Shown: piece by piece, positions 50,094-61,668 of the stretch | Numbering within the stretch: the stretch's first letter is position 1 | Layout of the letters: every line of letters starts with the position of its first letter | Source: Nannocystis pusilla | GTDB taxonomy: Bacteria; Myxococcota_A; Polyangia; Nannocystales; Nannocystaceae | Length of the DNA: 64,000 nucleotides | Assembly (NCBI RefSeq): GCF_049337375.1 | Contig: NZ_JBMPIV010000001.1 | Reading direction: 5' to 3' (one strand) | Translations under genes and position numbers: made by a program | Notes under the pieces: model-generated | Database searches by the model: none | Seen by the model: the letters and a program-made list of their open reading frames with translations, nothing else | Told to the model about the DNA's origin: nothing

Positions 50094-50097
<4 letters not shown>

Positions 50098-52001
50098 GCG
50101 GGGGGGAAAGAGTACCCCTCGGCGAGCGCGTTGGCGACCTCGGTATAGGCGTAATCGCTGACGCGTTCGTCGATGCGCATGCGCAGCAGCGCCTTGCTGC
50201 GGCAGGTGGCCGCGAAGAAGAACGCGCGATCGTCGGCGCACGCGCGCGCGAGCGCCGGATCGGCGGCCCAGCGGTCCCACTCGCGCTGGCAGATCCGCCG
50301 CACCGCGGGCCACAGGACGTCGGGAGCGGGGCCGCCGGCGTCGTCGACCCAACCGATCACAGCCGCGAGGTGGGCGTGTACGAGGGTGTGCAGCAGCTTG
50401 CCCTGCGCCTCGGCGAGGTCGGAGGTCAGGGTGAAGGAGTCGGGCGCGAGCGCGGGAGCGTGGCCGGCCGCGGCCAGCCGCCCGCGGTGGAGCCGCACGC
50501 CGCCGAGGTCGCGGACGACGAAGCCGCAGGGGCGCCCGGCGTGGACGAGGAGGGTGTTTTGCAGGTGCGCCTCGAGGGCGACGCCGTGGGCGGTGAGCAG
50601 GCGCAGGGCCGCGGGGACGAGGAGGTCGAGGTAGTCGCGGAAGAAGGCCGCGAGGCGCGCGCGCAGATCGCCGGGGTAGTCGGCGGCGAGCTCGCGCAGC
50701 ACGAGATCGCCGCCGGGCCGGCGCTCGCCGAGAGCGGCGCAGACGACGAGCTGCGGAGTGCGCGATTGGACATGCTTCAAAAAATCTGTCGCTCGGGACA
50801 GGTCCTCGGGGGCATGTCGTAAGGGGAATGTCGCGGAGGACAGGTCGGAAGGGGCAGGTGCGCCGGCGGGCGAGTCCGGAGCGGTCGGCGTCGCGTGGGA
50901 CGGGTCGGCGGGGGCGGCGAGGTCGGCGTGGAGCCGTCGGGCGAGGGCGGCGGGGTCGGGGCGGAGGACGACGCCGAGCTGGCCGGCGTCGGCGCCGTGG
51001 CGCGAGTGCAGGCCGGCGGCGGCGAGGTCGGGCTGGATCTGCAGGCCGCGGCGGGTCTGCGGGTCGGCGGCCTGGATCGCGGCCAGGAGGGCGGCGATCG
51101 CCGGGCCGTTGTGCACCGAGGCGGGCGAGACCTGGCGCCGCGCGCTGGTGGTGTGGATGTCGACGGCGAGCTTGAGGTGCAGCGCCGGCGCGGCGAGGGC
51201 GACGGTGCGCAGGCTGAGCAGGGCCCGCGCATGGAGCGGGGGCAGGCCGGCGGGGCGGACCTCGCGGCCCCACAGCGGGCCGAGCAGGCGCGGGAGGCGG
51301 CGCAGCTGGAGGGCGTGGACGGGGATGCGGACCAGGCCGGGCGGCGGGGCGGGGAAGAGGGCGCGGGCGAGGTCGGCATAGACGGCCGGCTCGGCCAGCT
51401 GGGCGTGCTCGGCGGCGACGTCGACGGCGTGGACTGCCGCCTGGGCCAGGAGGTCGGGGCCGTGGCGCAGGTTCTCCCAGGCGCGCAGGCCGAGCCGGGT
51501 CTTGCTCATCGGGTGCCACGGGTGGCCGTCGACGACCAGGTTCTCGGGGTCGAGCGGGGCGGGCCACGGCTGTCCTTCGGAGCATGTCCGATGGCGCAGG
51601 TCGGCGGCGAGGCGGGCGAGGGCGAGGTTCCAGCGGCTGTCGGCGAGCTCGCGCGCGATCCGGGCGCGGGCGGCGGGGGCGAGCGCGGGCAGGAGGCGCG
51701 GGAGCAGGTCGGGGAGGTCGGGGAGGTCGGCGCCGTCGAGGTCGGCGGCGTGCAGCTCGAAGGCCCGGCGCCGGCGCAGCGGGAGGCTCAAGGAACATGT
51801 GCGAAGGGACATGTCCTGGAGGTCGAACTCGACGAGGCGCTCGCGCGCGCAGGCGAGGACGAGGCGAGCGCCGATCGCCTGGGTGGCGGCCCGCCAGTGG
51901 GCGGCGAGCTCGCCGGGCGCGGGGCGGGCGCCGAACGCGGCAGGCACGGCCCGGGCGGCGAAGGCGAGGAAGCGGTCGCGCTCGGTGGATGGGGTGCTCA
52001 C
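50094..52001 (-). CDS. IucA/IucC-family (NRPS-independent siderophore synthetase-like) adenylating ligase with two in-frame repeat-derived insertions
   Basis: Conserved ..[14 protein letters not shown].., ..VHALQ.., ..[16 protein letters not shown].. and ..[11 protein letters not shown].. regions. Proposed GTG start at 52001 overlaps the stop of the upstream gene (GTGA). Inserts at 50767-50860 and 51790-51822 are CATG-repeat arrays. Confidence 0.65.
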
Positions 52002-52627
52002 GACGGACGAAGCATGGCCTCGACGCCGGACCAGGGCGCGGGCTCGAATTCCGCGGTCGGAACGACCTGTGACACCGCCCACTCGACGATCTGGGCTGGT
52101 CGGAGCGCGGGGAACGGCACCCGGACTTTCGGTGCGACCTCGAGGGTCGGGCCGACGTGGCAGTGCAAAGCGGCGTGACCGCAAGCGCCGAGGCCGTCGC
52201 GGTCGCCCTGCGGACGCTCGGCCGTTTGACGGTCGTGCGGAAGATGGATGGCCACGGCCCAGGGCGAGTTGTCGTGGCGCTGACCGCTGAGCATGATGTT
52301 GAGCTCCTGAAGGCGCTCGGCCCGGCGATCGAAGCGCAAGAGGACGGCGAGCCGGGCGCTGCGGAGAGCGACGGCGTCGTGCAGCGGTGGCGGTAACGTC
52401 GCCAGCTCGAGCTCTTCGCCGGCGCGCTCGCGGCCGAGGGTGTATTGGACGGAGGGACTCTGCGGGACCCGCCCCTCCACGAGGCGGGCCTGTGCGTCGC
52501 GGCGGAGCACAGCGTAGGGCTTTTCGGACAGCTTGCGCAGGACCTGGCGGACCTCGTTGGCGGCCTCGCGATCGTTCATGACGCGCAGCACCTGGTGTTG
52601 GCGGTAGAGCTCGACCCAGGGCCTCAT
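51998..52627 (-). CDS. hypothetical protein (209 aa), His-rich C-terminal half (..[20 protein letters not shown]..)
   Basis: C-terminal part of ORF 51998-53074 from [10 protein letters not shown]. Start overlaps the stop of the upstream gene (ATGA). Confidence 0.5.
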
Positions 52628-53166
52628 GTCTGCTCCAACGTCATGGCCCAGAAAGCACGGGTGTAGTTCTCTTGCGTGCGCGGGAGAAGACCTGCGCGCC
52701 ACGGGGCGAGCCAGTCCTCCGGAGATTGGCCGGTGTCGGTCGAGAACGCCGTGCGCTCGGCGTCGACGTCGAGTTCCGCGAGTTGTTCGGGATCGACGTC
52801 GCTGCCGCTGGCCCAACTCCAGGCGCTCGGAGCCTCGGTGGCGAGGGCGCGGTAACCATCGCCGTGGCGCAGCAAGAAGAGCACGATCGGCTGGGTGCGT
52901 GGAGGATTGAGCGCCTGATCGCGAGAGCCGTCGAGGTCGCGGACGACCTCGGCCTCGTCGACCGGGACGAGCAATGCCATGCGGTTCGGCTCGCGTAATG
53001 CGTCCGCGACGGAGGAGGTGCGAAAAGGCCTCGCGGCGGTGGACGCAAGGCTCTCGACCTCTCGCACTAGCCATTCGCGCAGGTCGAGATCGGGGCAGAT
53101 GACGATGGCCAGGCCGCCCGCGTCACGCGCAATCGCCCCGGCGAGAGCGATGCCGGGCTCACGCAT
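52624..53166 (-). CDS. hypothetical protein (180 aa)
   Basis: ORF 52624-53196. Start at MREPGIALAG, 2 bp after the ATPase stop. Confidence 0.5.
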   Translation of the reverse strand: MREPGIALAGAIARDAGGLAIVICPDLDLREWLVREVESLASTAARPFRTSSVADALREPNRMALLVPVDEAEVVRDLDGSRDQALNPPRTQPIVLFLLRHGDGYRALATEAPSAWSWASGSDVDPEQLAELDVDAERTAFSTDTGQSPEDWLAPWRAGLLPRTQENYTRAFWAMTLEQT

Positions 53167-54298
53167 GGCTCGCTCCGGCGAGCAACTTGCGCGCAAGGGG
53201 ATGGATGTCCATGACGTATCCAGCGGCGCGCTGGCGCTCGAGGATCACGCCGCGGGCGAGGAGACGGATCTTACGGCCGAGCTCCATCTCGCGGCCGTCA
53301 GTGCCCGCCACGCGTGCGATCGCGTCCGTGTCCCCGGGTAGCAGGGCGCGGCGGAAGCTGTCCTTCTGGTCATTGATCGCATCGATTAGATCCTGGCCGA
53401 GCGGCCAGTCGTCGCCGCGGCGGAGGAGTGCGTATTGCGCGGCGTCGGCCATGAGTTGAAGAAAGGTGCGAGGCAGGCCGCCGCTCCAGCGGGCGGCATC
53501 GAACACGCTGGCGCGGGAGGTGAGCTGCGACTCGTGGGCGAGCAACTGCTCCAGAGAAACTCCCAACCGCTGCGCGAGGATCTCCGCCAAAAACAATCGG
53601 CCCGGGGCATGCGTCGGGTCTTCGACTTCGGGTACGGGGACCGGCGCGAAGAGTGCGCCAGGGCGCACGGCGTCCTCGGAGGCCCCGAACGCGACGAACC
53701 ACGGGACGACCGCGATGATGTCGATGTCATCGCTCAGTTGGCCGAGGGTGGCGAGCGCCTCGGATGACTGCGGGCCCTCGGGCAGCTTCTCCAAACCGTC
53801 CAGTAGGAGCGTCAGTCGACGCGGGCCGGCGCGGCGCGCGAGTTCCTCGCGCGCCGCGTGTACCAGCGAGAGGGGGCTGCCCGTGAACGACGACGCTGGC
53901 ACTTGAAGGCCGGAGAGCAGGCTTGGCGTCGCCACTCCGGCCGCGTTCAAGGCGGTGACGAGCGCACTCGAGGGACGTATGCCGAGAGCGTCTCTGGCGA
54001 CTTCGACCATCCTCGCGGCGAGCCGCAGCAGCATCTGGTCGGCCGTGAGGCGCCGAATGTTCTCGAGTCGGTCGAACTGGACGAGACAAGCGAAGCGCGA
54101 GGTCTGTAACGCGTCGGCGATGCGCGCCAGCTCGGTGCTCTTTCCGACGCCGACAGGACCGCCGACGAGCACGGTGGATGTGCCGCTGGTGACGAGGCGG
54201 GCGATTCGCTCCGCATAACCGGAAGGGGGGACGACGTAGCCAGCCTCGCCCGGATCGAGCGGACGGTGAGGGGCCAGCGCCTTCCAGTTTAGGGTCAT
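53159..54298 (-). CDS. AAA+/P-loop NTPase (ORC/Cdc6- or STAND-like ATPase with C-terminal helical domain)
   Basis: Walker A LVGGPVGVGKSTEL. Walker B-like RRLTLLLDGLEKL. Start at MTLNWKALAP. Confidence 0.65.
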   Translation of the reverse strand: MTLNWKALAPHRPLDPGEAGYVVPPSGYAERIARLVTSGTSTVLVGGPVGVGKSTELARIADALQTSRFACLVQFDRLENIRRLTADQMLLRLAARMVEVARDALGIRPSSALVTALNAAGVATPSLLSGLQVPASSFTGSPLSLVHAAREELARRAGPRRLTLLLDGLEKLPEGPQSSEALATLGQLSDDIDIIAVVPWFVAFGASEDAVRPGALFAPVPVPEVEDPTHAPGRLFLAEILAQRLGVSLEQLLAHESQLTSRASVFDAARWSGGLPRTFLQLMADAAQYALLRRGDDWPLGQDLIDAINDQKDSFRRALLPGDTDAIARVAGTDGREMELGRKIRLLARGVILERQRAAGYVMDIHPLARKLLAGASHA

Positions 54299-54347
54299 GA
54301 GGTCTTTTTTCTTACCGCCTCGAGTGCAGGCGGTCAACGCGCGCCGC

Positions 54348-55055
54348 TCAGGCCGCGCGGCGGAGCTCGAGGCCGAGTTCGCCGAGCATGAGGGCGGCGG
54401 ACAGGAGCAGGATCCAGGCGATCCAGCGGCGCAGGCTGTCGGGGTCGAGGTCGCCGGTGCGGCGGGCGCCGAGGTTGGCGCCGAGCAGGGTGAGCGGGGT
54501 GACGACCGCGAAGGCGGTGAGGTCGATCTGTCCTTCGAGGAAGGTGGCGACGCCGGCCGACAGCCCGGTGACGGCGCCGATCGCCATGTTGGTGCCGACG
54601 GCCACGGGCGGCGGGACGCGGGCGTAGCGGATCATGGCCGGCAGGCGCAGGCTGCCGAGGAGGAGGCCGACGAGGCCCGAGATCGCGCCGAGGACGGCGC
54701 CGACGACGACCTCGGCGAGGACGGCGAAGGTGCGCGAAGGGACATGTTCGGAAGGACCGGCGGGCTCGGGCCGGCGGCGCAGCATGGCGGCGCCGGTGAG
54801 CAGGAGGACGCCGGCGATGGCGGCCTTGAGGAGGCGAGCGTCGACGCTGCCGGCCCAGCGCGCGGTGGCGAAGGCGGCGACGGCCGAGGGCGCGCCGACG
54901 CTGGCCAGCAGCCACAGGCTGACGCGGCCGTCGCGGGCGTGGCGCCAGGTGCCGACGAGGGTGCCGGCGGTGGAGATGGCGAGGCTGGTGGCGGCCCCGG
55001 CGACGGGGCTGCCGAGGACGTAGACGAGGAGGGCCACCCGCAGCTGACCGAGCAC
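54348..55055 (-). CDS. sulfite exporter TauE/SafE family membrane protein
   Basis: Two TSUP half-repeats with Gly-rich TM helices (..GAISGLVGLLLGS..). A repeat-derived in-frame insert (PSEHVPSRTF) lies at 54733-54760. Confidence 0.7.
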   Translation of the reverse strand: MLGQLRVALLVYVLGSPVAGAATSLAISTAGTLVGTWRHARDGRVSLWLLASVGAPSAVAAFATARWAGSVDARLLKAAIAGVLLLTGAAMLRRRPEPAGPSEHVPSRTFAVLAEVVVGAVLGAISGLVGLLLGSLRLPAMIRYARVPPPVAVGTNMAIGAVTGLSAGVATFLEGQIDLTAFAVVTPLTLLGANLGARRTGDLDPDSLRRWIAWILLLSAALMLGELGLELRRAA

Positions 55056-55277
55056 GAGCCCGACGGTGGCGCCGATGTAGCTGAGGCCGAAGGAGACCAG
55101 CGCGATGAGCGCCAGCGCGAGGATCTCGGTGGAGCGCAGGCGCCGACGCTAACACGCGCGCGGCGAGTCCGGGCAGCCGCGCCGACGCGAGCGCCGGCAT
55201 GAGGTGGCGTTCATGATCGCAGCGTTCACGCCTCGCGCGCTGCGAGGCCGCGTGCATCGGCGTCGGCGCGAGCGATC

Positions 55278-56132
55278 GTGTCGGCGGTGAAAGCCGGGAG
55301 GCGGCTTGACAGGCGGGCGCGCGCGGGCGGACGCTGCGGCGGCGTGACGGAGCGCGGGGACACTGCGGCGGCGGAGGAGCTCGCAACGGGGCTTCCGGGG
55401 CCGACGAGGCCGCGCTGGGTGGTGATCCACTGGACGCCGGAGGCGCTCGGGCTGGTGCGGGCGATCGCGGCGGCCGAGCCGGCGCCGGAGCTGACGCTGA
55501 TCGGGCCGGCGCCGGCCGAGGCGGTCGCGGCGGCGCTGGCCGAGTTGCCCGCGGGACATGTCCAAAAGTACTGGCAGGGCTCGGCGAGCGGCGGGGTCGA
55601 GGCGCTGGCGCGCTTCTTCGCCGATACCGCCGGGCTGCCGGCGGCCGACGCGATCATCGTGCTGCCGCTGCGCGGCCACGGCGAGACCGACGCGTTCTCG
55701 CGCCTGGTGTGCACGGCGATCCTGCGCGCGTGCAAGGGCAAGCCGCCGCACGTGGTGGTGGCGGTCGAGGACCCGGAGGCGACCCACGAATTCGAGGGCC
55801 TGGGCGTGGCGACGATCTTCTACCCGGGCTTTTTGCGCGCGGCCCTGCTGGCCCACGCGTGCGTCGATCTCGGGGCGTTCCGCTTCATGCTGGCGCTGCT
55901 CGGCGGGCGCCTGCGCGTCGAGACCTGGTCGGTGCCGCCGGAGCTGCGCGCGGGGACGTTCCGCGAGGCCTGCCTGAACGTGGAGGTCGACCGCCGCGGC
56001 CGCCCGGTGACGCTGATCGGGCTGTTCGCGCCCGGCGAGGGCGGGCCGGACGCGATGCTGCTGAGCCCGCCGCCCGCCCGCCCGCTGCGCGACGCGAGCG
56101 CGCTGCTGGTGCTGACCGGAGAGGCCGAGTGA
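55278..56132 (+). CDS. RCK/TrkA-like regulatory protein (TrkA-N Rossmann + TrkA-C)
   Basis: ..HVVVAVEDPEATHEFEGLGVATIFYPGFLRAALLAHA.. (RCK-N) and a C-terminal ..VTLIGLF..LVLTGEAE segment (TrkA-C-like). Start uncertain. Confidence 0.5.
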   Translation: MSAVKAGRRLDRRARAGGRCGGVTERGDTAAAEELATGLPGPTRPRWVVIHWTPEALGLVRAIAAAEPAPELTLIGPAPAEAVAAALAELPAGHVQKYWQGSASGGVEALARFFADTAGLPAADAIIVLPLRGHGETDAFSRLVCTAILRACKGKPPHVVVAVEDPEATHEFEGLGVATIFYPGFLRAALLAHACVDLGAFRFMLALLGGRLRVETWSVPPELRAGTFREACLNVEVDRRGRPVTLIGLFAPGEGGPDAMLLSPPPARPLRDASALLVLTGEAE

Positions 56133-56233
56133 GGCGCGGGCAGCGGCGGCCGGACGGCGCGGCGGCGCGAGGCGAGCGCGCGGGCGGAGCGAGCTCGTCG
56201 CGGGCGCGGCGGGGCGTCTCGCAGCCTGGCCGT

Positions 56234-56300
56234 CGGGGCATGTTCTCGCGGACATGGCCGATCATGCCTGTCCTTTTAGGCATGTTCCTGCAGACAGGTG
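56234..56300. repeat. CATG-core 14-bp repeat array overlapping the start of the channel gene (ggggcatgttctcg cggacatggccgat catgcctgtccttt taggcatgttcctg cagacaggtg)
   Basis: The ATG codons of MFSRTWPIMPVLLGMFLQ are the CATG cores of successive repeat units. Confidence 0.85.
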
Positions 56301-58564
56301 CGGCGCGGGCGGGCGAGGCGATCGTGGTCCGCTTCGGCTCGGGGGCGAAGAAGGGCGGGTTCGACGTGACGGCGCACGCGCTGGCCGAGGCGGTCCAGGG
56401 CGAGGGGCGGGTGACGATCGCGCCGGAGGCGACCCGGGGCTCGTGCGAGAACGTCCACAAGCTGCTGTCGGGCGAGCTCGACGCGGCGCTGGTGCAGTAC
56501 GACGTGGCGGCGGAGGCGTTCAAGGCCGGGCTGGCCGACGCAGACGCGGGCGACAGCGCGATCCCGAAGGGCGGGTGGATGTGCAAGCTGTCGCCCGAGG
56601 AGGCCGACAAGGCCGAGCTGCGGGTGATCGCGGCGGTGTCCGACGCGGCGGTCCACGTGCTGGTGCGCCGACCGGTGCGCCTCGACGACTTCGCCGAGAT
56701 CGGCCGCGAGCCGCTGTTCATGGGCAAGGACGGCTCGGGCAGCTACGAGACGGCGAAGGTGATCCTCGGCGCGGCCGGCCACACCGCGGAGCAGCTGCCG
56801 CTGTTCACGGGCACGGCCGACGAGGCGCTGGCGGCGATGAGCCGGCGCGAGCTGCTGACGATGCTGCGGACCACCGAGCCCGGGCACTCGGAGATCCGCG
56901 ACGTGCTGGCGTCGGGCCTGGCGACCCTGAACCCGCTGCCAGAGGCGGTGCTGAACCGCCTGATCGACGGCTACCCGTATTACCGGATCTGCCCGATCGA
57001 GACCGGGACCTATCCGGGCCTCGAGTACAGCATGCCGACGGTGTGCGTGAGCTCGGTGGTGCTGGTGGCGACGCCGCGCGAGCGGGTCGAAGACGAGGCC
57101 TTCCTCGCCGACCGCCGGCTGGCGGTCGAGGCGATGATCCACGGGCTCAAGAAGCTGGCGCGCGACCCGAAGTACGCGAGCCTCAAGGTCCGCGTGGAGT
57201 GGCGCGGGTTCGCCGAGCGCGAGCCGATCCCGCTCCACCCGGTGGCGGAGCTGCACGAGACCAGCGAGCGCCGGCAGGCGTGGCTGCAGGGCGGAGCGTT
57301 CGCGGCGGCGCTCGGGGTGGTGCTGTACCTGGTGCGCCGGGCGCTGCGGCGGCGGCGGGTCCCCGGCGCGGGGATCGAGAGCCAGCTGTCGAACCCGCTG
57401 GTGCCGTTCGCGGCGTTCGCCTGCGTGGTGACGCTGTCGACGTTCATCGTCTGGTCTTTGGAACATGACTCGAACGCCAGGCTGCGGACGCTGAACGACT
57501 CGTTCTGGGAGATGAACACGTTCGCCACCGGCAACTTCACGACCGAGACGCTGAAGACGCCGACGGCGCGGCTGGTCGGGGCGGCGGCGACGATCCTCGG
57601 GCTGGGCCTTTTGGCGTGGTTCACCGCGACGCTGACGAACATCTTCGCGCAGGAGCAGACCCGGCTGTGGCGGCGGCTCAACCGGCACCTGGTGGTGCTG
57701 AACTTCCGCGAGGACATGCTGCCGCTGATCCGGCTGCTGCGCAGCCCGGGGCCGACGCGGCACAGGCCGCTGCACGTGGTGGTGTCCGACGCGCTGCCGC
57801 GGCGGGTGCGGCTGCAGCTGGCGCGGGTCAAGGCGCTGACGATCCACCACTCGAACCCGGAGGTGCCGGAGGACCTGGCGGGGCTGCGGCTGCCGCGGGC
57901 GTCGCGGGTGATCGTGCTCGGCGACGGCGACGGGTCGGGGGCCAGCTACGATCCGCTGCGGATCGCCCGCGCGGTCCATCAGGCGTGCGCGCGCGACCCA
58001 CTCGGCGGCGGGCAGCGGGCGCGGACGCTCGGGGTGGCGGCGACGTCGGTCGAGATCGCCCGCACCGCGCCGGCGCTGCCGGTGACCCTAGTCGAGACGT
58101 CGGAGGCGGAGCGCGAGGAGGTGTTCTCGCCGTTCGCGGCCTGGCTGGTGCCGGTCGATTGCCAGGCGCTGGCGCACCGCTGGCTGGTGATGGCGTGCCG
58201 CGACCGCGCCTTCGCGGAGCTGTTCAACCGCGTGGTGGCGTTCGCCGACGACAACGCCGAGGTCTACACGGCGCCGGCACCGACCTGGCTCATCGGACAG
58301 CCGTGGCGCAAGGCCCGACGCGCGTTGCTCGAGGTGCAGGGCCGCGGCGGCGCGGTGCCCCTGGGGCTGTATCGCGCGGCCGATCCGGGCGGCAAGGCGC
58401 CGGCCGGCGGGACATCGCACGCGGAGTTGCGGCGGCGGCTGATCGTCAACCCGCGGCCGGACGAGACGCTGGTGCCGGGCGACCTGATCGTGGCGCTGTG
58501 CGAGGACGAGGCCGACTTGGTGCGGATCGTGGCCGAGAGCCGCAAGGCCGCGGCGCCGAGCTGA
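56240..58564 (+). CDS. fusion protein: TAXI-family (TRAP-associated) periplasmic solute-binding domain + two-TM ion-channel pore + C-terminal RCK-like domains
   Basis: ORF 55709-58564, start placed at MFSRTW (signal peptide). TAXI signature (..VRFGSGAKKGGFDVTAHALA..TRGSCENVHKLLSGELDAALVQYDVA..). Pore module TM1-pore helix-TM2 (..FIVWSL..NDSFWEMNTFATGNFTT..GAAATILGLGLLAWFTATLTNIF). RCK-like (..HVVVSDALP..VIVLGDGDGS..). The ORF's upstream 177 aa are Arg/Gly-rich, not coding-like. Confidence 0.65.
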   Translation: MFSRTWPIMPVLLGMFLQTGAARAGEAIVVRFGSGAKKGGFDVTAHALAEAVQGEGRVTIAPEATRGSCENVHKLLSGELDAALVQYDVAAEAFKAGLADADAGDSAIPKGGWMCKLSPEEADKAELRVIAAVSDAAVHVLVRRPVRLDDFAEIGREPLFMGKDGSGSYETAKVILGAAGHTAEQLPLFTGTADEALAAMSRRELLTMLRTTEPGHSEIRDVLASGLATLNPLPEAVLNRLIDGYPYYRICPIETGTYPGLEYSMPTVCVSSVVLVATPRERVEDEAFLADRRLAVEAMIHGLKKLARDPKYASLKVRVEWRGFAEREPIPLHPVAELHETSERRQAWLQGGAFAAALGVVLYLVRRALRRRRVPGAGIESQLSNPLVPFAAFACVVTLSTFIVWSLEHDSNARLRTLNDSFWEMNTFATGNFTTETLKTPTARLVGAAATILGLGLLAWFTATLTNIFAQEQTRLWRRLNRHLVVLNFREDMLPLIRLLRSPGPTRHRPLHVVVSDALPRRVRLQLARVKALTIHHSNPEVPEDLAGLRLPRASRVIVLGDGDGSGASYDPLRIARAVHQACARDPLGGGQRARTLGVAATSVEIARTAPALPVTLVETSEAEREEVFSPFAAWLVPVDCQALAHRWLVMACRDRAFAELFNRVVAFADDNAEVYTAPAPTWLIGQPWRKARRALLEVQGRGGAVPLGLYRAADPGGKAPAGGTSHAELRRRLIVNPRPDETLVPGDLIVALCEDEADLVRIVAESRKAAAPS

Positions 58565-58809
58565 CGGCGCCGCGCGCGACGCGGGGCTCGAGCGATGCAG
58601 AGCGGTGCGCGTCGTCGGGCCACGCCTTCGTTCTCGGCGTCGGCGGGTCTGCAGGCCGCGGAGGCGACGTGTACGTGCTTCAAAGCGCGAGCGCGGGCGC
58701 GATCGACTGAGGCGAGGAAGTCGCGCGATCGCTACGCGGCCCGTCGACCCCACGAGCGGGCGCGAGTCGCCCGGCGCGCGCCGGTTGACTGCGGCGGCGG
58801 TCAGGTCGT

Positions 58810-59979
58810 ATGCGGGACGGGATGCTGCCCTCTCGTGTCGTTCTCGCGTGGTCTTCCGTGCTCGTCTTCGGCTGCTACTCGGGCGTCGCGGAGGTGACCG
58901 AGAGCATCGGCGCGCCCGAGACCGCGAGCGAGGCGACGAGCACCGGCGCGAGCGCGGCGAGCAGCGGACCGGGGACGAGCGACGCGAGCGCGCCGGGCAC
59001 CGGCGAGGCGTCGACCGCGGAGGCGCCGACGAGCACGAGCGTCGCGGAGACGACGACCACGGGGCCGGACGAGGTGTCCTCGGGGCCAGGTCCGACCGAC
59101 GGCGGGACGTCCGGCGCGGCCTCGACGACCACCGGCGACGTCAGCACCACCACCGGCGAGCCGGTCGATCCGGCGGCGGAGGTGTGCGCGCGCTGGACGG
59201 CGGACCGGACGGACATGTCCGAAGGGACATGGAGCGGGGCGGTCGCCGGCTGTCAGGCGGGCGACACCGGCGCGCCGGGCCGCGACAACGCGCTCAAGCT
59301 GATCAACCTGTACCGCTGGCTGGCCGGGCTGCCGGCGGTCGGGCACGACGCCGGGCTCGACGCCAAGGCCCAGCAGTGCGCGCTGATGATGCACGCCAAC
59401 GGGCAGTTGTCGCACGACCCGCCCATGCAGTGGGACTGTTACAGCGCCGACGGGGCGCAGGCGGCGAAGAACAGCAACATCTCGTCGACGCCGGGCGTGG
59501 TCGCGGTCGACCTCTACATGGTCGACCCCGGCAACGCGACGACCTTCGGCCATCGGCGGTGGATCCTCTCGAACGGGCTCGGGCCGGTCGGGCTCGGGTC
59601 GACGGCCGTCAACTCGTGCATGTGGGTGATCGGCGGGCAGGGCGGCGGCGACGCGGCGTGGACGGCCTGGCCGCCGCCCGGGGTGGTGCCGATCGACGCG
59701 ATCCACGTGCCCGAGGTGCCGTGGGCCAACGTCGACGAGACGGGCTGGACGATCCAGAGCGACGCGATCGACCTCGGCGCGGCGCAGGTGACGATCCGCG
59801 AGGGCGGGGTCGACCTGCCGGTGAAGACGACGGCGCTCATGGGCGGGTTCGGCTCGGCCAGCGCGGTCGCCATGACGCCGCAGGGCTGGACCTCGGAGGC
59901 CGGCAAGACCTACACGGTCGAGGTGAACGGGGTGCCGCAGCCGTTCGGCTACGAGGTGCAGGTGGTCGCCTGTCCCTGA
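58810..59979 (+). CDS. CAP/SCP (PR-1-like) domain lipoprotein with Thr/Ser-rich linker
   Basis: VFGCYSG lipobox. CAP motifs (..NLYRWLAGLP.., ..GHRRWILS.., ..MQWDCYSA..). In-frame repeat-derived insert DRTDMSEGTW at 59218-59245. Confidence 0.7.
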   Translation: MRDGMLPSRVVLAWSSVLVFGCYSGVAEVTESIGAPETASEATSTGASAASSGPGTSDASAPGTGEASTAEAPTSTSVAETTTTGPDEVSSGPGPTDGGTSGAASTTTGDVSTTTGEPVDPAAEVCARWTADRTDMSEGTWSGAVAGCQAGDTGAPGRDNALKLINLYRWLAGLPAVGHDAGLDAKAQQCALMMHANGQLSHDPPMQWDCYSADGAQAAKNSNISSTPGVVAVDLYMVDPGNATTFGHRRWILSNGLGPVGLGSTAVNSCMWVIGGQGGGDAAWTAWPPPGVVPIDAIHVPEVPWANVDETGWTIQSDAIDLGAAQVTIREGGVDLPVKTTALMGGFGSASAVAMTPQGWTSEAGKTYTVEVNGVPQPFGYEVQVVACP

Positions 59980-60525: not shown

Positions 60526-61668
60526 GTGGGGAGTGCTACAGTGAGGGCGATGCGAGCGGTCCGCGGTGCGGTCGGGATGATGTGGCTCGGGCTCGGCGCG
60601 TGCCCGTCGCCGGTCACGAGCGGCGAGAGCGACGCGACGACGTCGAGCAGTTCGACGGAGACGGGCGCGCCCGCCGGGACGAGCGGGTCGAGCAGCTCGG
60701 GCGGGACGACGGCGGCGCCGACGACCACGGAGCCGGCGCCCGACGCCGGGATCGCGTCCCGCTGCGGTAGCGACAGCCCGGAGGCGCTGATGGACTGCGT
60801 CGATCCGGCTCGGTGGGCCGAGGACGTCGCGTTCATGGCCCAGTCGCGGCCGCCGGGATCGATCCACTGGCAGAAGGTGCAGGACCGCTGCGCGGCGGCG
60901 CTCGAGCAGGCGGGCTTCGCGGTGCAGCGCCAGGACTACGGGACCGGGATCAACGTGATCGGGACGCGCGAGGGCGCCGCGGCGGCGTCCGAGGTGGTGC
61001 TGCTGGCGGCCCACTACGATCACGTCAGCGGCTGCCCCGGCGCCGACGACAACGCGAGCGGGGTGGCGGGGGCGCTCGAGGTGGCGCGCGTGCTCGGGCA
61101 GGCGAGGCTGCCGCGCACGCTGATGGTGGCCTGCTGGGACGAGGAGGAGCTGGGGCTGCGCGGCTCGCGGGCGTTCGCGCAGACGTTCACGGGCGCGAAG
61201 CTGGCGGTGGCGTTCAACTTCGACATGATCGGCTACGCGAGCGCGGCGGAGCACTCGCAGATCTTCCCGGGGCCGCTGGCGGAGCGGTTCCCCGGGCTGG
61301 CCGACGAGCTGACCGCCAACAAGGGGCGCGCCGACTTCATCGCGGTGGTCGCCGACGCGTCCGCGGAACCGTTCGCGCTCGAGCTGGAGCGGCGGGCGGA
61401 GCGCCTCGGCCGGCTGACGGGGGTGATGACCCTGACGGACGCGGAGAAGCTCGACGACGACGCGTTCGGGGTGCTGAGCATGTCGGACCACCGCAGCTTC
61501 TGGGAGCGAGGGCTGCCGGCGCTGCACGTGTTCGACACCGGGGTGTTCCGCAACCCGGCGTATCACTGCACGGGCGGGCTCGACACTCCGGACAAGCTCG
61601 ACCACGCGTTCGCGGCCGACGTGCTCAAGGCGACGACGGCGGCGGTCGCGGCGGCTGCCGGCCTGTGA
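60526..61668 (+). CDS. M28-family zinc aminopeptidase lipoprotein with Thr/Ser-rich linker
   Basis: LGLGAC lipobox. Metal-ligand motifs (..AAHYDHV..ADDNASGVAG.., ..ACWDEEELGLRGS..). Start may be an internal Met (MRAVRG or MMWLGLG). Confidence 0.8.
   Translation: MGSATVRAMRAVRGAVGMMWLGLGACPSPVTSGESDATTSSSSTETGAPAGTSGSSSSGGTTAAPTTTEPAPDAGIASRCGSDSPEALMDCVDPARWAEDVAFMAQSRPPGSIHWQKVQDRCAAALEQAGFAVQRQDYGTGINVIGTREGAAAASEVVLLAAHYDHVSGCPGADDNASGVAGALEVARVLGQARLPRTLMVACWDEEELGLRGSRAFAQTFTGAKLAVAFNFDMIGYASAAEHSQIFPGPLAERFPGLADELTANKGRADFIAVVADASAEPFALELERRAERLGRLTGVMTLTDAEKLDDDAFGVLSMSDHRSFWERGLPALHVFDTGVFRNPAYHCTGGLDTPDKLDHAFAADVLKATTAAVAAAAGL

Follow-up and report, generated by a model that had tools for sequence, protein, structure and literature searches.

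A 64,000-nucleotide stretch of a Nannocystis pusilla contig (NZ_JBMPIV010000001.1; hereafter the window, with a base composition of approximately 72% GC) carries two neighbouring forward-strand genes: one for a stand-alone RCK protein and one for a fusion protein in which a TAXI solute-binding domain is followed by an additional transmembrane helix (TM0), a two-helix P-loop pore and an RCK domain. On the basis of sequence and predicted structure the fusion protein most likely belongs to the P-loop cation channels of the MthK/Slo/CASTOR type, and the favoured interpretation, to which we assign a probability of roughly 60%, is that together the gene pair specifies a cation channel, tetrameric and without selectivity for potassium, which would be gated from outside by the ligand of the TAXI domain and from inside by a ring of eight RCK domains supplied by both genes.

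Under this interpretation four fusion subunits would form the central pore, while their four tethered RCK domains would pair with four soluble ones into an eight-member gating ring. Closure of the TAXI clamshell on a small periplasmic ligand would be passed to the gate through TM0 and an invariant loop preceding the first pore helix, and a cytoplasmic ligand would act through the RCK ring. The pore would pass cations without selecting potassium, as suggested by the replacement of both glycines of the potassium filter (TGNFTT for TVGYGD), and the invariant acidic residues E408, D410, E424 and E/D436 would line its outer mouth.

Domain architecture of the fusion protein and the upstream RCK protein

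The two genes and the predicted parts of the fusion protein were placed as follows.

55278..56132, + strand: upstream stand-alone RCK gene, 284 amino acids from the first GTG at 55278
56240..58564, + strand: TAXI-TM0-pore-RCK fusion gene, 774 amino acids plus stop
56240..56314, + strand: signal peptide, residues 1-25, with a cleavage-type site A-R-A/G read from the sequence
56315..57247, + strand: periplasmic TAXI solute-binding domain, residues 26-336 (Pfam, PDB profile, model, pocket mapping)
57278..57334, + strand: TM0, residues 347-365, running from outside to inside (hydropathy; model helix 334-371)
57392..57463, + strand: M1 outer pore helix, residues 385-408 (hydropathy, AlphaFold2 model, hhalign)
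57491..57544, + strand: pore helix and filter, residues 418-435 (hhalign against potassium-channel pores)
57563..57649, + strand: M2 inner helix, residues 442-470, with an invariant GLG..LAWFTA (alignment, hydropathy, AlphaFold2 model, hhalign)
57665..58561, + strand: tethered cytoplasmic RCK domain, residues 476-774 (Foldseek; weak TrkA_C)

At the position of the signal peptide the homologs likewise have a hydrophobic stretch with an AxA-type site after it. The fusion protein scored 83.7 bits (E=2e-23) with Pfam family PF16868 (NMT1_3), for which the cut-off is 27, and 79.3 with NCBIfam model TIGR02122 (TRAP_TAXI subfamily), under its cut-off of 84.35. When a profile of the fusion family (alignment A1, 34 sequences of 44-93% identity) was compared with the PDB, only TAXI proteins were returned, the best being the Thermus glutamate-binding protein 1US4, with 8U79 also among them (E=4e-28). 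The AlphaFold2 model of the domain (predicted local distance difference test, pLDDT, 85-95) showed the two-lobe TAXI fold, and the top Foldseek ranks for the model of the fusion protein were 1US4, 8U79, 9IBO, 8S4J, 4DDD and 9IBP. An earlier note on this DNA had assigned the domain to TAXI on condition that domain searches did not place it in another family; Pfam, the PDB profile and Foldseek all gave TAXI and no other family, and the assignment stands. The long TAXI signature that it had read was recovered as an exact pattern match (TRGSCENVHKLLSGELDAALVQYD, residues 65-88), and its glycine motif is also present, but with the spacing G-S-G-x-x-x-G-G (GSGAKKGG, residues 33-40) rather than G-S-G-x-x-G-G.

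The ligand pocket was mapped from the contact residues of VcGluP (PMC11574862) using hidden Markov model and MAFFT alignments. Four contacts are retained in the fusion protein, namely F41 (Y45 in VcGluP), S68 (S75), Q86 (Q93) and G167 (G156), and these positions (Y/F45, S75, Q93 and G156) are kept across all TAXI-channel clades. Three others are changed relative to VcGluP: E125 to A136, D157 to S168 and Y200 to R210. In VcGluP the alpha-amino group of the ligand is bound by the acidic E125 (PMC11574862); the equivalent of this residue is acidic in the distant clades and A, S or G in the core Nannocystaceae clade, where position 200 is a nearly invariant arginine (R210). This swap of charge in the pocket (E125 to A136, Y200 to R210) makes an organic anion that lacks an alpha-amino group, rather than L-glutamate, the probable ligand.

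The TAXI domain carries an insertion at about residues 97-122, and cysteines C69, C115, C251 and C269 are invariant in the TAXI domain of the Nannocystaceae-type clade; neither the insertion nor the four cysteines are found in the other TAXI-channel clades. The cysteines may pair as two disulfides in the periplasm, or else provide a site for redox chemistry or metal binding. As regards their location, one of the four adjoins the ligand-contacting S68, and another lies within the clade-specific insertion (GGWMC).

Hydrophobic segments of the fusion protein were located by hydropathy at residues 347-365, 385-408 and 442-470, and the AlphaFold2 model contained helices at 334-371 (linker and TM0), 387-411 (M1), 418-429 (pore helix) and 441-472 (M2), with a loop at 430-440. 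TM0 is followed by a stretch reading RRALRRRR and by a conserved cytoplasmic pre-M1 loop in which E380, L383, N385, P386, P389 and F390 are invariant. The signal peptide, TM0 with its RRALRRRR stretch, and this invariant loop together predict a periplasmic position for the TAXI domain and the pore loop and a cytoplasmic one for the RCK domain, and M1, pore helix and M2 have the topology in which the loop enters from the outer face. The structure prediction proposed as a check in the earlier note was run on the monomer and gave the expected helix hairpin; the TM1-pore helix-TM2 module described there is thus borne out, and is homologous to potassium-channel pores, but TM0 had gone unmentioned.

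That homology was found by two routes. A phmmer search of residues 370-774 against 1.8 billion representative proteins matched Ion_trans_2 channels with TTVGYGD filters (for example P0137, E=8.7e-13), and the pore region aligned by hhalign to canonical potassium-channel pores (98.1%, E=1.3e-13, 87 columns). In this alignment the filter T430-G-N-F-T-T435 falls on T-V-G-Y-G-D, with the threonine and the aromatic residue retained and both glycines replaced; the T-V-G-Y-G-D signature of potassium selectivity is therefore absent from the fusion protein, and the non-TVGYG filter quoted previously (FWEMNTFATGNFTT, residues 422-435) was correctly read. Nowhere in the protein is conservation higher than in the pore helix, filter and M2, where LEHDSNAR.RTLNDSFWEMN.FATGNF and GLG.LAWFTA are invariant or nearly so. 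FATGNF itself is unchanged in all 34 homologs of the family alignment, which argues for a functional pore.

In the tethered RCK domain a low-complexity loop separates the N-lobe, which is Rossmann-like but has no GxGxxG, from a C-lobe resembling TrkA_C; in the AlphaFold2 model alternating strand-helix elements occupy residues 483-653 and are followed by the C-lobe. Pfam gave a weak TrkA_C match (E=0.088), and Foldseek on the C-terminal half matched MthK (3rbz), Slo1, Slo2.2 and the Lotus CASTOR ring (6o6j) with E from 1e-8 to 1e-7. The earlier proposal of RCK at the C-terminus is upheld by these matches, although it had spoken of several segments and a single tethered RCK domain was found.

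The product of the upstream gene had been described as a TrkA-N/TrkA-C protein. An RCK fold was indeed recovered for it: in a Foldseek search with its AlphaFold2 model (pLDDT 79.8) the top 39 matches were all to the RCK domains of MthK, CASTOR, DMI1 or Slo1 (E from 3e-9 to 3e-6), and the profile of its family matched DMI1 (7vm8, E=0.01); in Pfam, however, the only match was a weak one to TrkA_N (E=0.065). BLASTP of the upstream protein against the C-terminus of the fusion protein gave no match, while profile-profile comparison aligned the two over 225 columns (hhalign, 95.5%, E=1.4e-8), and by this measure the upstream stand-alone RCK is a paralog of the tethered one. With RCK fold, paralogy and strict synteny, a second RCK per subunit is available as a gene, and paralogy to a single tethered RCK suggests that the ring is divided between the two genes. 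The GxGxxG motif is present in neither RCK; the tethered one reads VVLNFRED, which makes binding of NAD unlikely.

Gene order, gene boundaries and distribution

The window was compared with seven related loci, from Paraliomyxa, Enhygromyxa, Plesiocystis, one Nannocystaceae isolate and three metagenome contigs. In all seven the RCK gene lies directly upstream of the fusion gene (E from 1e-38 to 1e-104) and overlaps it by 1-4 nucleotides. In none of the eight loci was a TRAP permease gene (DctQ/DctM-type) found in the surrounding 4-6 kb or so. A gene for a TauE/SafE (TSUP) family membrane protein stands divergently upstream of the RCK gene in six of the eight (the window, L003, L024, L025, L027 and L028). 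The remaining neighbours in the window, a siderophore synthetase, an ATPase, a CAP-domain protein and a peptidase, appear unrelated to the channel.

54348..55055, - strand: TauE/SafE (TSUP) family membrane protein gene (Pfam PF01925, E=7e-34)
TauE genes in related loci: L003 4130-5080, L024 3077-3853, L025 2708-3481, L027 2397-3185, L028 2288-3145
50094..52181, - strand: IucA/IucC siderophore synthetase with FhuF domain
53159..54337, - strand: AAA_16/NACHT-like ATPase
58810..59979, + strand: secreted CAP-domain protein with a Ser/Thr/Gly-rich linker
60526..61668, + strand: M28 peptidase

The fusion gene lies in an uninterrupted open reading frame (55709..58564, + strand), in which ATG 56240 is the first ATG ahead of the signal-peptide-like segment. 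The length of 775 amino acids given in the earlier note is the codon count including the stop, the protein itself having 774, and its span of 55278-58564 does contain the gene pair, but position 55278 is the start of the upstream gene. An alternative start for the fusion gene is GTG 56129, which shares bases with the stop codon TGA that ends the upstream gene (GTGA). The sequence GGAGAGG lies 6 nucleotides ahead of this GTG, and translation from it would add a 37-amino acid Arg-rich extension to the precursor before the signal peptide; overlapping starts of this type are picked by gene callers in the related loci. If used, GTG 56129 would make the RCK and fusion genes translationally coupled, as in the other genomes. 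For the upstream RCK protein the NCBI homologs have 262 amino acids, equivalent to a start at 55344. The start codons of both genes are thus uncertain. An Rfam scan of positions 54000-59000 for a riboswitch or other RNA element gave no match at E<=1, and promoter and terminator scans of the locus found nothing.

The best match of the upstream RCK protein is from N. pusilla (98% identity) and that of the fusion protein from Nannocystis exedens (94% identity). In total, 124 homologs of the fusion protein were identified, with E down to 0, mostly of the same architecture and a few partial; they stem from independent genomes, among them complete ones of Nannocystis, and from metagenomes, and this close family lies in the Nannocystaceae and related Myxococcota. 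In a subgroup of about 1100 amino acids two tandem TAXI domains precede the pore (P0014, P0015 and P0033; locus L026 4001-7285; Pseudenhygromyxa, Enhygromyxa and Plesiocystis). The first domain reads ALVKYD, with the key pocket glutamine replaced by lysine, and the second ALVQYA, and the two pockets probably differ. The possibility that these longer homologs are fusions with the upstream RCK gene was considered and rejected, as BLASTP and inspection showed two tandem TAXI domains.

A second set comprised 56 proteins related more remotely to the C-terminal half of the fusion protein, typically of 700-760 amino acids and with the domain order unchanged. Pfam identified Slo-like_RCK in 46 of them, NMT1_3 in 39, Castor_Poll_mid in 29, Ion_trans_2 in 14 and Lig_chan in 8, and TrkA_N also occurs. 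One clade (loci L004-L015) has F-S-G-L-E-D at the filter position, where potassium channels have T-T-V-G-Y-G-D. Full-length relatives of this SGLED clade were found in Acidobacteriota (including Thermoanaerobaculia) and Planctomycetota; Zixibacteria, Abditibacteriales and other phyla gave matches that were weaker or covered part of the protein. The open reading frames upstream of two SGLED-clade genes (L004 and L007) matched neither Pfam nor the profile of the partner RCK. All four residues equivalent to the alpha-carboxyl and alpha-amino contacts of VcGluP (Y, S, Q and E/D) are retained in the clade, and because of this its channels may be gated by an amino acid. Judged from these comparisons, the TAXI-pore-RCK design is widespread, and the split ring and TGNFTT filter mark the Nannocystaceae-type clade.

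The search for the same fusion in other genomes, suggested in the earlier note, accordingly returned more than 100 Nannocystaceae members and distant relatives in Acidobacteriota and Planctomycetota. A fusion of TAXI to a pore had been called unusual there; our literature searches for TAXI-channel fusions found no paper describing such a channel, but the fusion belongs to a broad family in several phyla. In public databases these proteins (P0001, P0002, P0014, P0057 and P0111) go either by 'TAXI family TRAP transporter solute-binding subunit' or by 'TRAP-type uncharacterized transport system, substrate-binding protein', names that cover only the first 40% of the fusion protein. At least one source name among the homologs mentions an RCK N-terminal domain, while most say TRAP solute-binding subunit.

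Known systems and alternative interpretations

Among solved structures the best match is MthK, with 3rbz for pore and RCK and 3rbx, among others, for the upstream RCK protein. It shares with the Nannocystis channel a two-helix P-loop pore, one tethered RCK and a second, soluble RCK copy, which in Nannocystis too would complete the ring. In MthK the soluble RCK is made from an internal start within the same gene, whereas here it is the product of a separate, diverged paralog gene. An eight-RCK ring is thus obtained from one gene in MthK, from tandem RCK domains in Slo and CASTOR, and would come from two genes in Nannocystis. MthK also differs in its filter (TVGYGD, against TGNFTT) and in lacking both an extracellular domain and TM0.

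The plant channels CASTOR, POLLUX and DMI1 resemble the Nannocystis channel in having a non-TVGYG filter with [S/T]-G-N (ATGNF in the latter), and the RCK rings of CASTOR and DMI1 are of the same fold family and among the best matches for both Nannocystis RCKs. The CASTOR filter reads ADS(A)GNHA, its aspartate D265 is essential for conduction, and the channel, likewise without TVGYG, was measured as calcium-selective (PMC6697748). If the G-N dipeptides are matched, a register that is assumed and not aligned, an alanine precedes T-G-N in Nannocystis where CASTOR has the aspartate. CASTOR has two tandem RCKs per chain, in contrast to the single tethered RCK of the fusion protein, and no solute-binding domain. 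Castor_Poll_mid, found in 29 of the 56 distant relatives, was undetected on the Nannocystis fusion protein.

GluR0 and the ionotropic glutamate receptors, in which a Venus-flytrap domain outside the membrane is joined to a P-loop pore of four subunits, are the functional analogues of a cation pore opened by an external ligand. Compared with potassium channels the pore of these receptors is inverted, whereas the Nannocystis pore is in the potassium-channel orientation, and they have no RCK. The ligand-binding domain of ionotropic glutamate receptors is split, with S1 and S2 flanking the pore (PMC2950845). In the fusion protein the TAXI domain (residues 26-336) is contiguous, wholly N-terminal and joined through TM0, and M2 is followed by RCK and not by an S2 lobe; nor was the ligand-binding domain found to be of the GluR0/SBP_bac_3 class. 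The GluR0-like comparison drawn in the earlier note consequently holds as a functional analogy, but not for the wiring.

The TAXI proteins of TRAP transporters (TtGluBP, 1US4/1US5; VcGluP, 8S4J/9IBO) have the same fold, belong to the same family and share the conserved core of the pocket. They are free or lipid-anchored, while the Nannocystis domain is fused to a channel with no TRAP permease gene nearby, and it departs from them in the replacement of E125 by A, S or G and of Y200 by R, in the four clade-specific cysteines and in the insertion. One recent precedent exists for fusion of TAXI to a non-TRAP membrane partner: in TAXI-GltS systems (BP0403; Lachnospiraceae fusions) TAXI works with, or is fused to, a membrane protein outside the TRAP family, and in operons the two are translationally coupled (10.1101/2024.11.27.625746). 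That partner, however, is an elevator-type secondary transporter and not a P-loop channel, and has no RCK.

Several observations weigh against a doubly gated channel with a two-gene ring. Pfam gave no channel family on the fusion protein itself, the only hit being Lig_chan at E=0.09, and the pore part of the monomer AlphaFold2 model was of low confidence (pLDDT 42-66), as is expected of a monomer model of a tetrameric pore. The TAXI domain is joined via a single TM0 and does not flank the pore as in ionotropic glutamate receptors, and the coupling path, being unprecedented, is speculative. The conserved TauE neighbour has no obvious functional link to the channel. Finally, the distant TAXI-channel clades lack a separate RCK gene, which indicates that a hetero-ring is not required for the TAXI-pore-RCK design in general.

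Solute-binding proteins normally deliver substrates to membrane translocators, and a transporter-like system was therefore considered in which TAXI captures a solute and passes it on to the pore, through which the solute or a co-ion would cross by facilitated passage. The homologs with two tandem TAXI domains are in keeping with it, as importers with tandem binding domains exist, and so is the TSUP/TauE transporter gene as a conserved neighbour. TAXI has, moreover, already been recruited to a non-TRAP partner in the TAXI-GltS operons and fusions (10.1101/2024.11.27.625746). Such uptake is nonetheless unlikely: the pore is homologous to narrow inorganic-ion pores, neither the size nor the charge of the TAXI ligands known so far, which are organic acids or amino acids (PMC11574862), would suit such a pore with its acidic mouth, and an RCK ring is a gating device and not an energy-coupling one.

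Since MthK and Slo1 are the closest solved relatives of the C-terminal half, and T430 and F433 occupy the positions of T75 and Y78 of the potassium filter, the protein could also be viewed as an ordinary RCK-gated potassium channel (MthK/Kch-like, serving potassium homeostasis) on which TAXI is an accessory or anchor with little effect on gating. This was judged quite unlikely, as both signature glycines are replaced, invariantly, by N and T, and channels that lack these glycines are not known to be potassium-selective. CASTOR, which also lacks TVGYG, was measured as calcium-selective (PMC6697748), and the core of the TAXI pocket (F/Y41, S68, Q86, G167 and R210) is conserved as for a working ligand site.

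The non-canonical filter would equally suit a non-conducting receptor, in which a degenerate pore would serve for tetramerisation and as a membrane scaffold while TAXI occupancy is relayed via RCK to cytoplasmic partners. Conservation is highest, however, precisely in the pore helix, filter and M2, a pattern hard to square with a mere scaffold, and such a receptor was considered very unlikely. Although long spurious open reading frames are common at about 72% GC, an artefact (a chance open reading frame, or an assembly or frameshift fusion of TAXI and channel genes) is refuted by the 124 homologs, most of which have this architecture over their full length and which come from metagenomes as well as independent genomes, and by distant clades sharing the TAXI-pore-RCK architecture.

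A doubly gated, non-potassium-selective cation channel is therefore preferred; in operation it would most resemble MthK or CASTOR equipped with a sensor on the outer side. More tentatively, and at somewhat less than even odds, it may represent a new class of channel, in which a whole TAXI domain and an extra helix replace the split ligand-binding domain and a hetero-octameric RCK ring is built from two translationally coupled paralog genes. Together with the SGLED clade it would then be bacterial kin of plant CASTOR/POLLUX/DMI1, with an organic anion as ligand in Nannocystaceae and probably an alpha-amino acid in other clades.

Significance

More than 100 proteins at present named as TAXI TRAP solute-binding subunits appear to be channel subunits without a TRAP partner. 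If the proposed gating is correct, they represent a second, independently wired coupling of a Venus-flytrap protein to a P-loop pore, made via a whole domain and TM0, which would be a useful contrast for understanding how clamshell closure opens a gate and a possible modular scaffold for biosensors. A ring split over two paralog genes would be intermediate between the one-gene, two-product arrangement of MthK and the tandem RCKs of Slo/CASTOR, and makes the evolution of hetero-rings testable.

Work on the link between nutrient sensing and membrane potential has so far centred on YugO, an RCK-gated channel, in biofilms of Bacillus. A cation channel gated by an external metabolite would give bacteria a direct route from that metabolite to cation flux, and would link nutrient sensing to membrane potential in the social, predatory myxobacteria and, through the distant clades, in several poorly known phyla.

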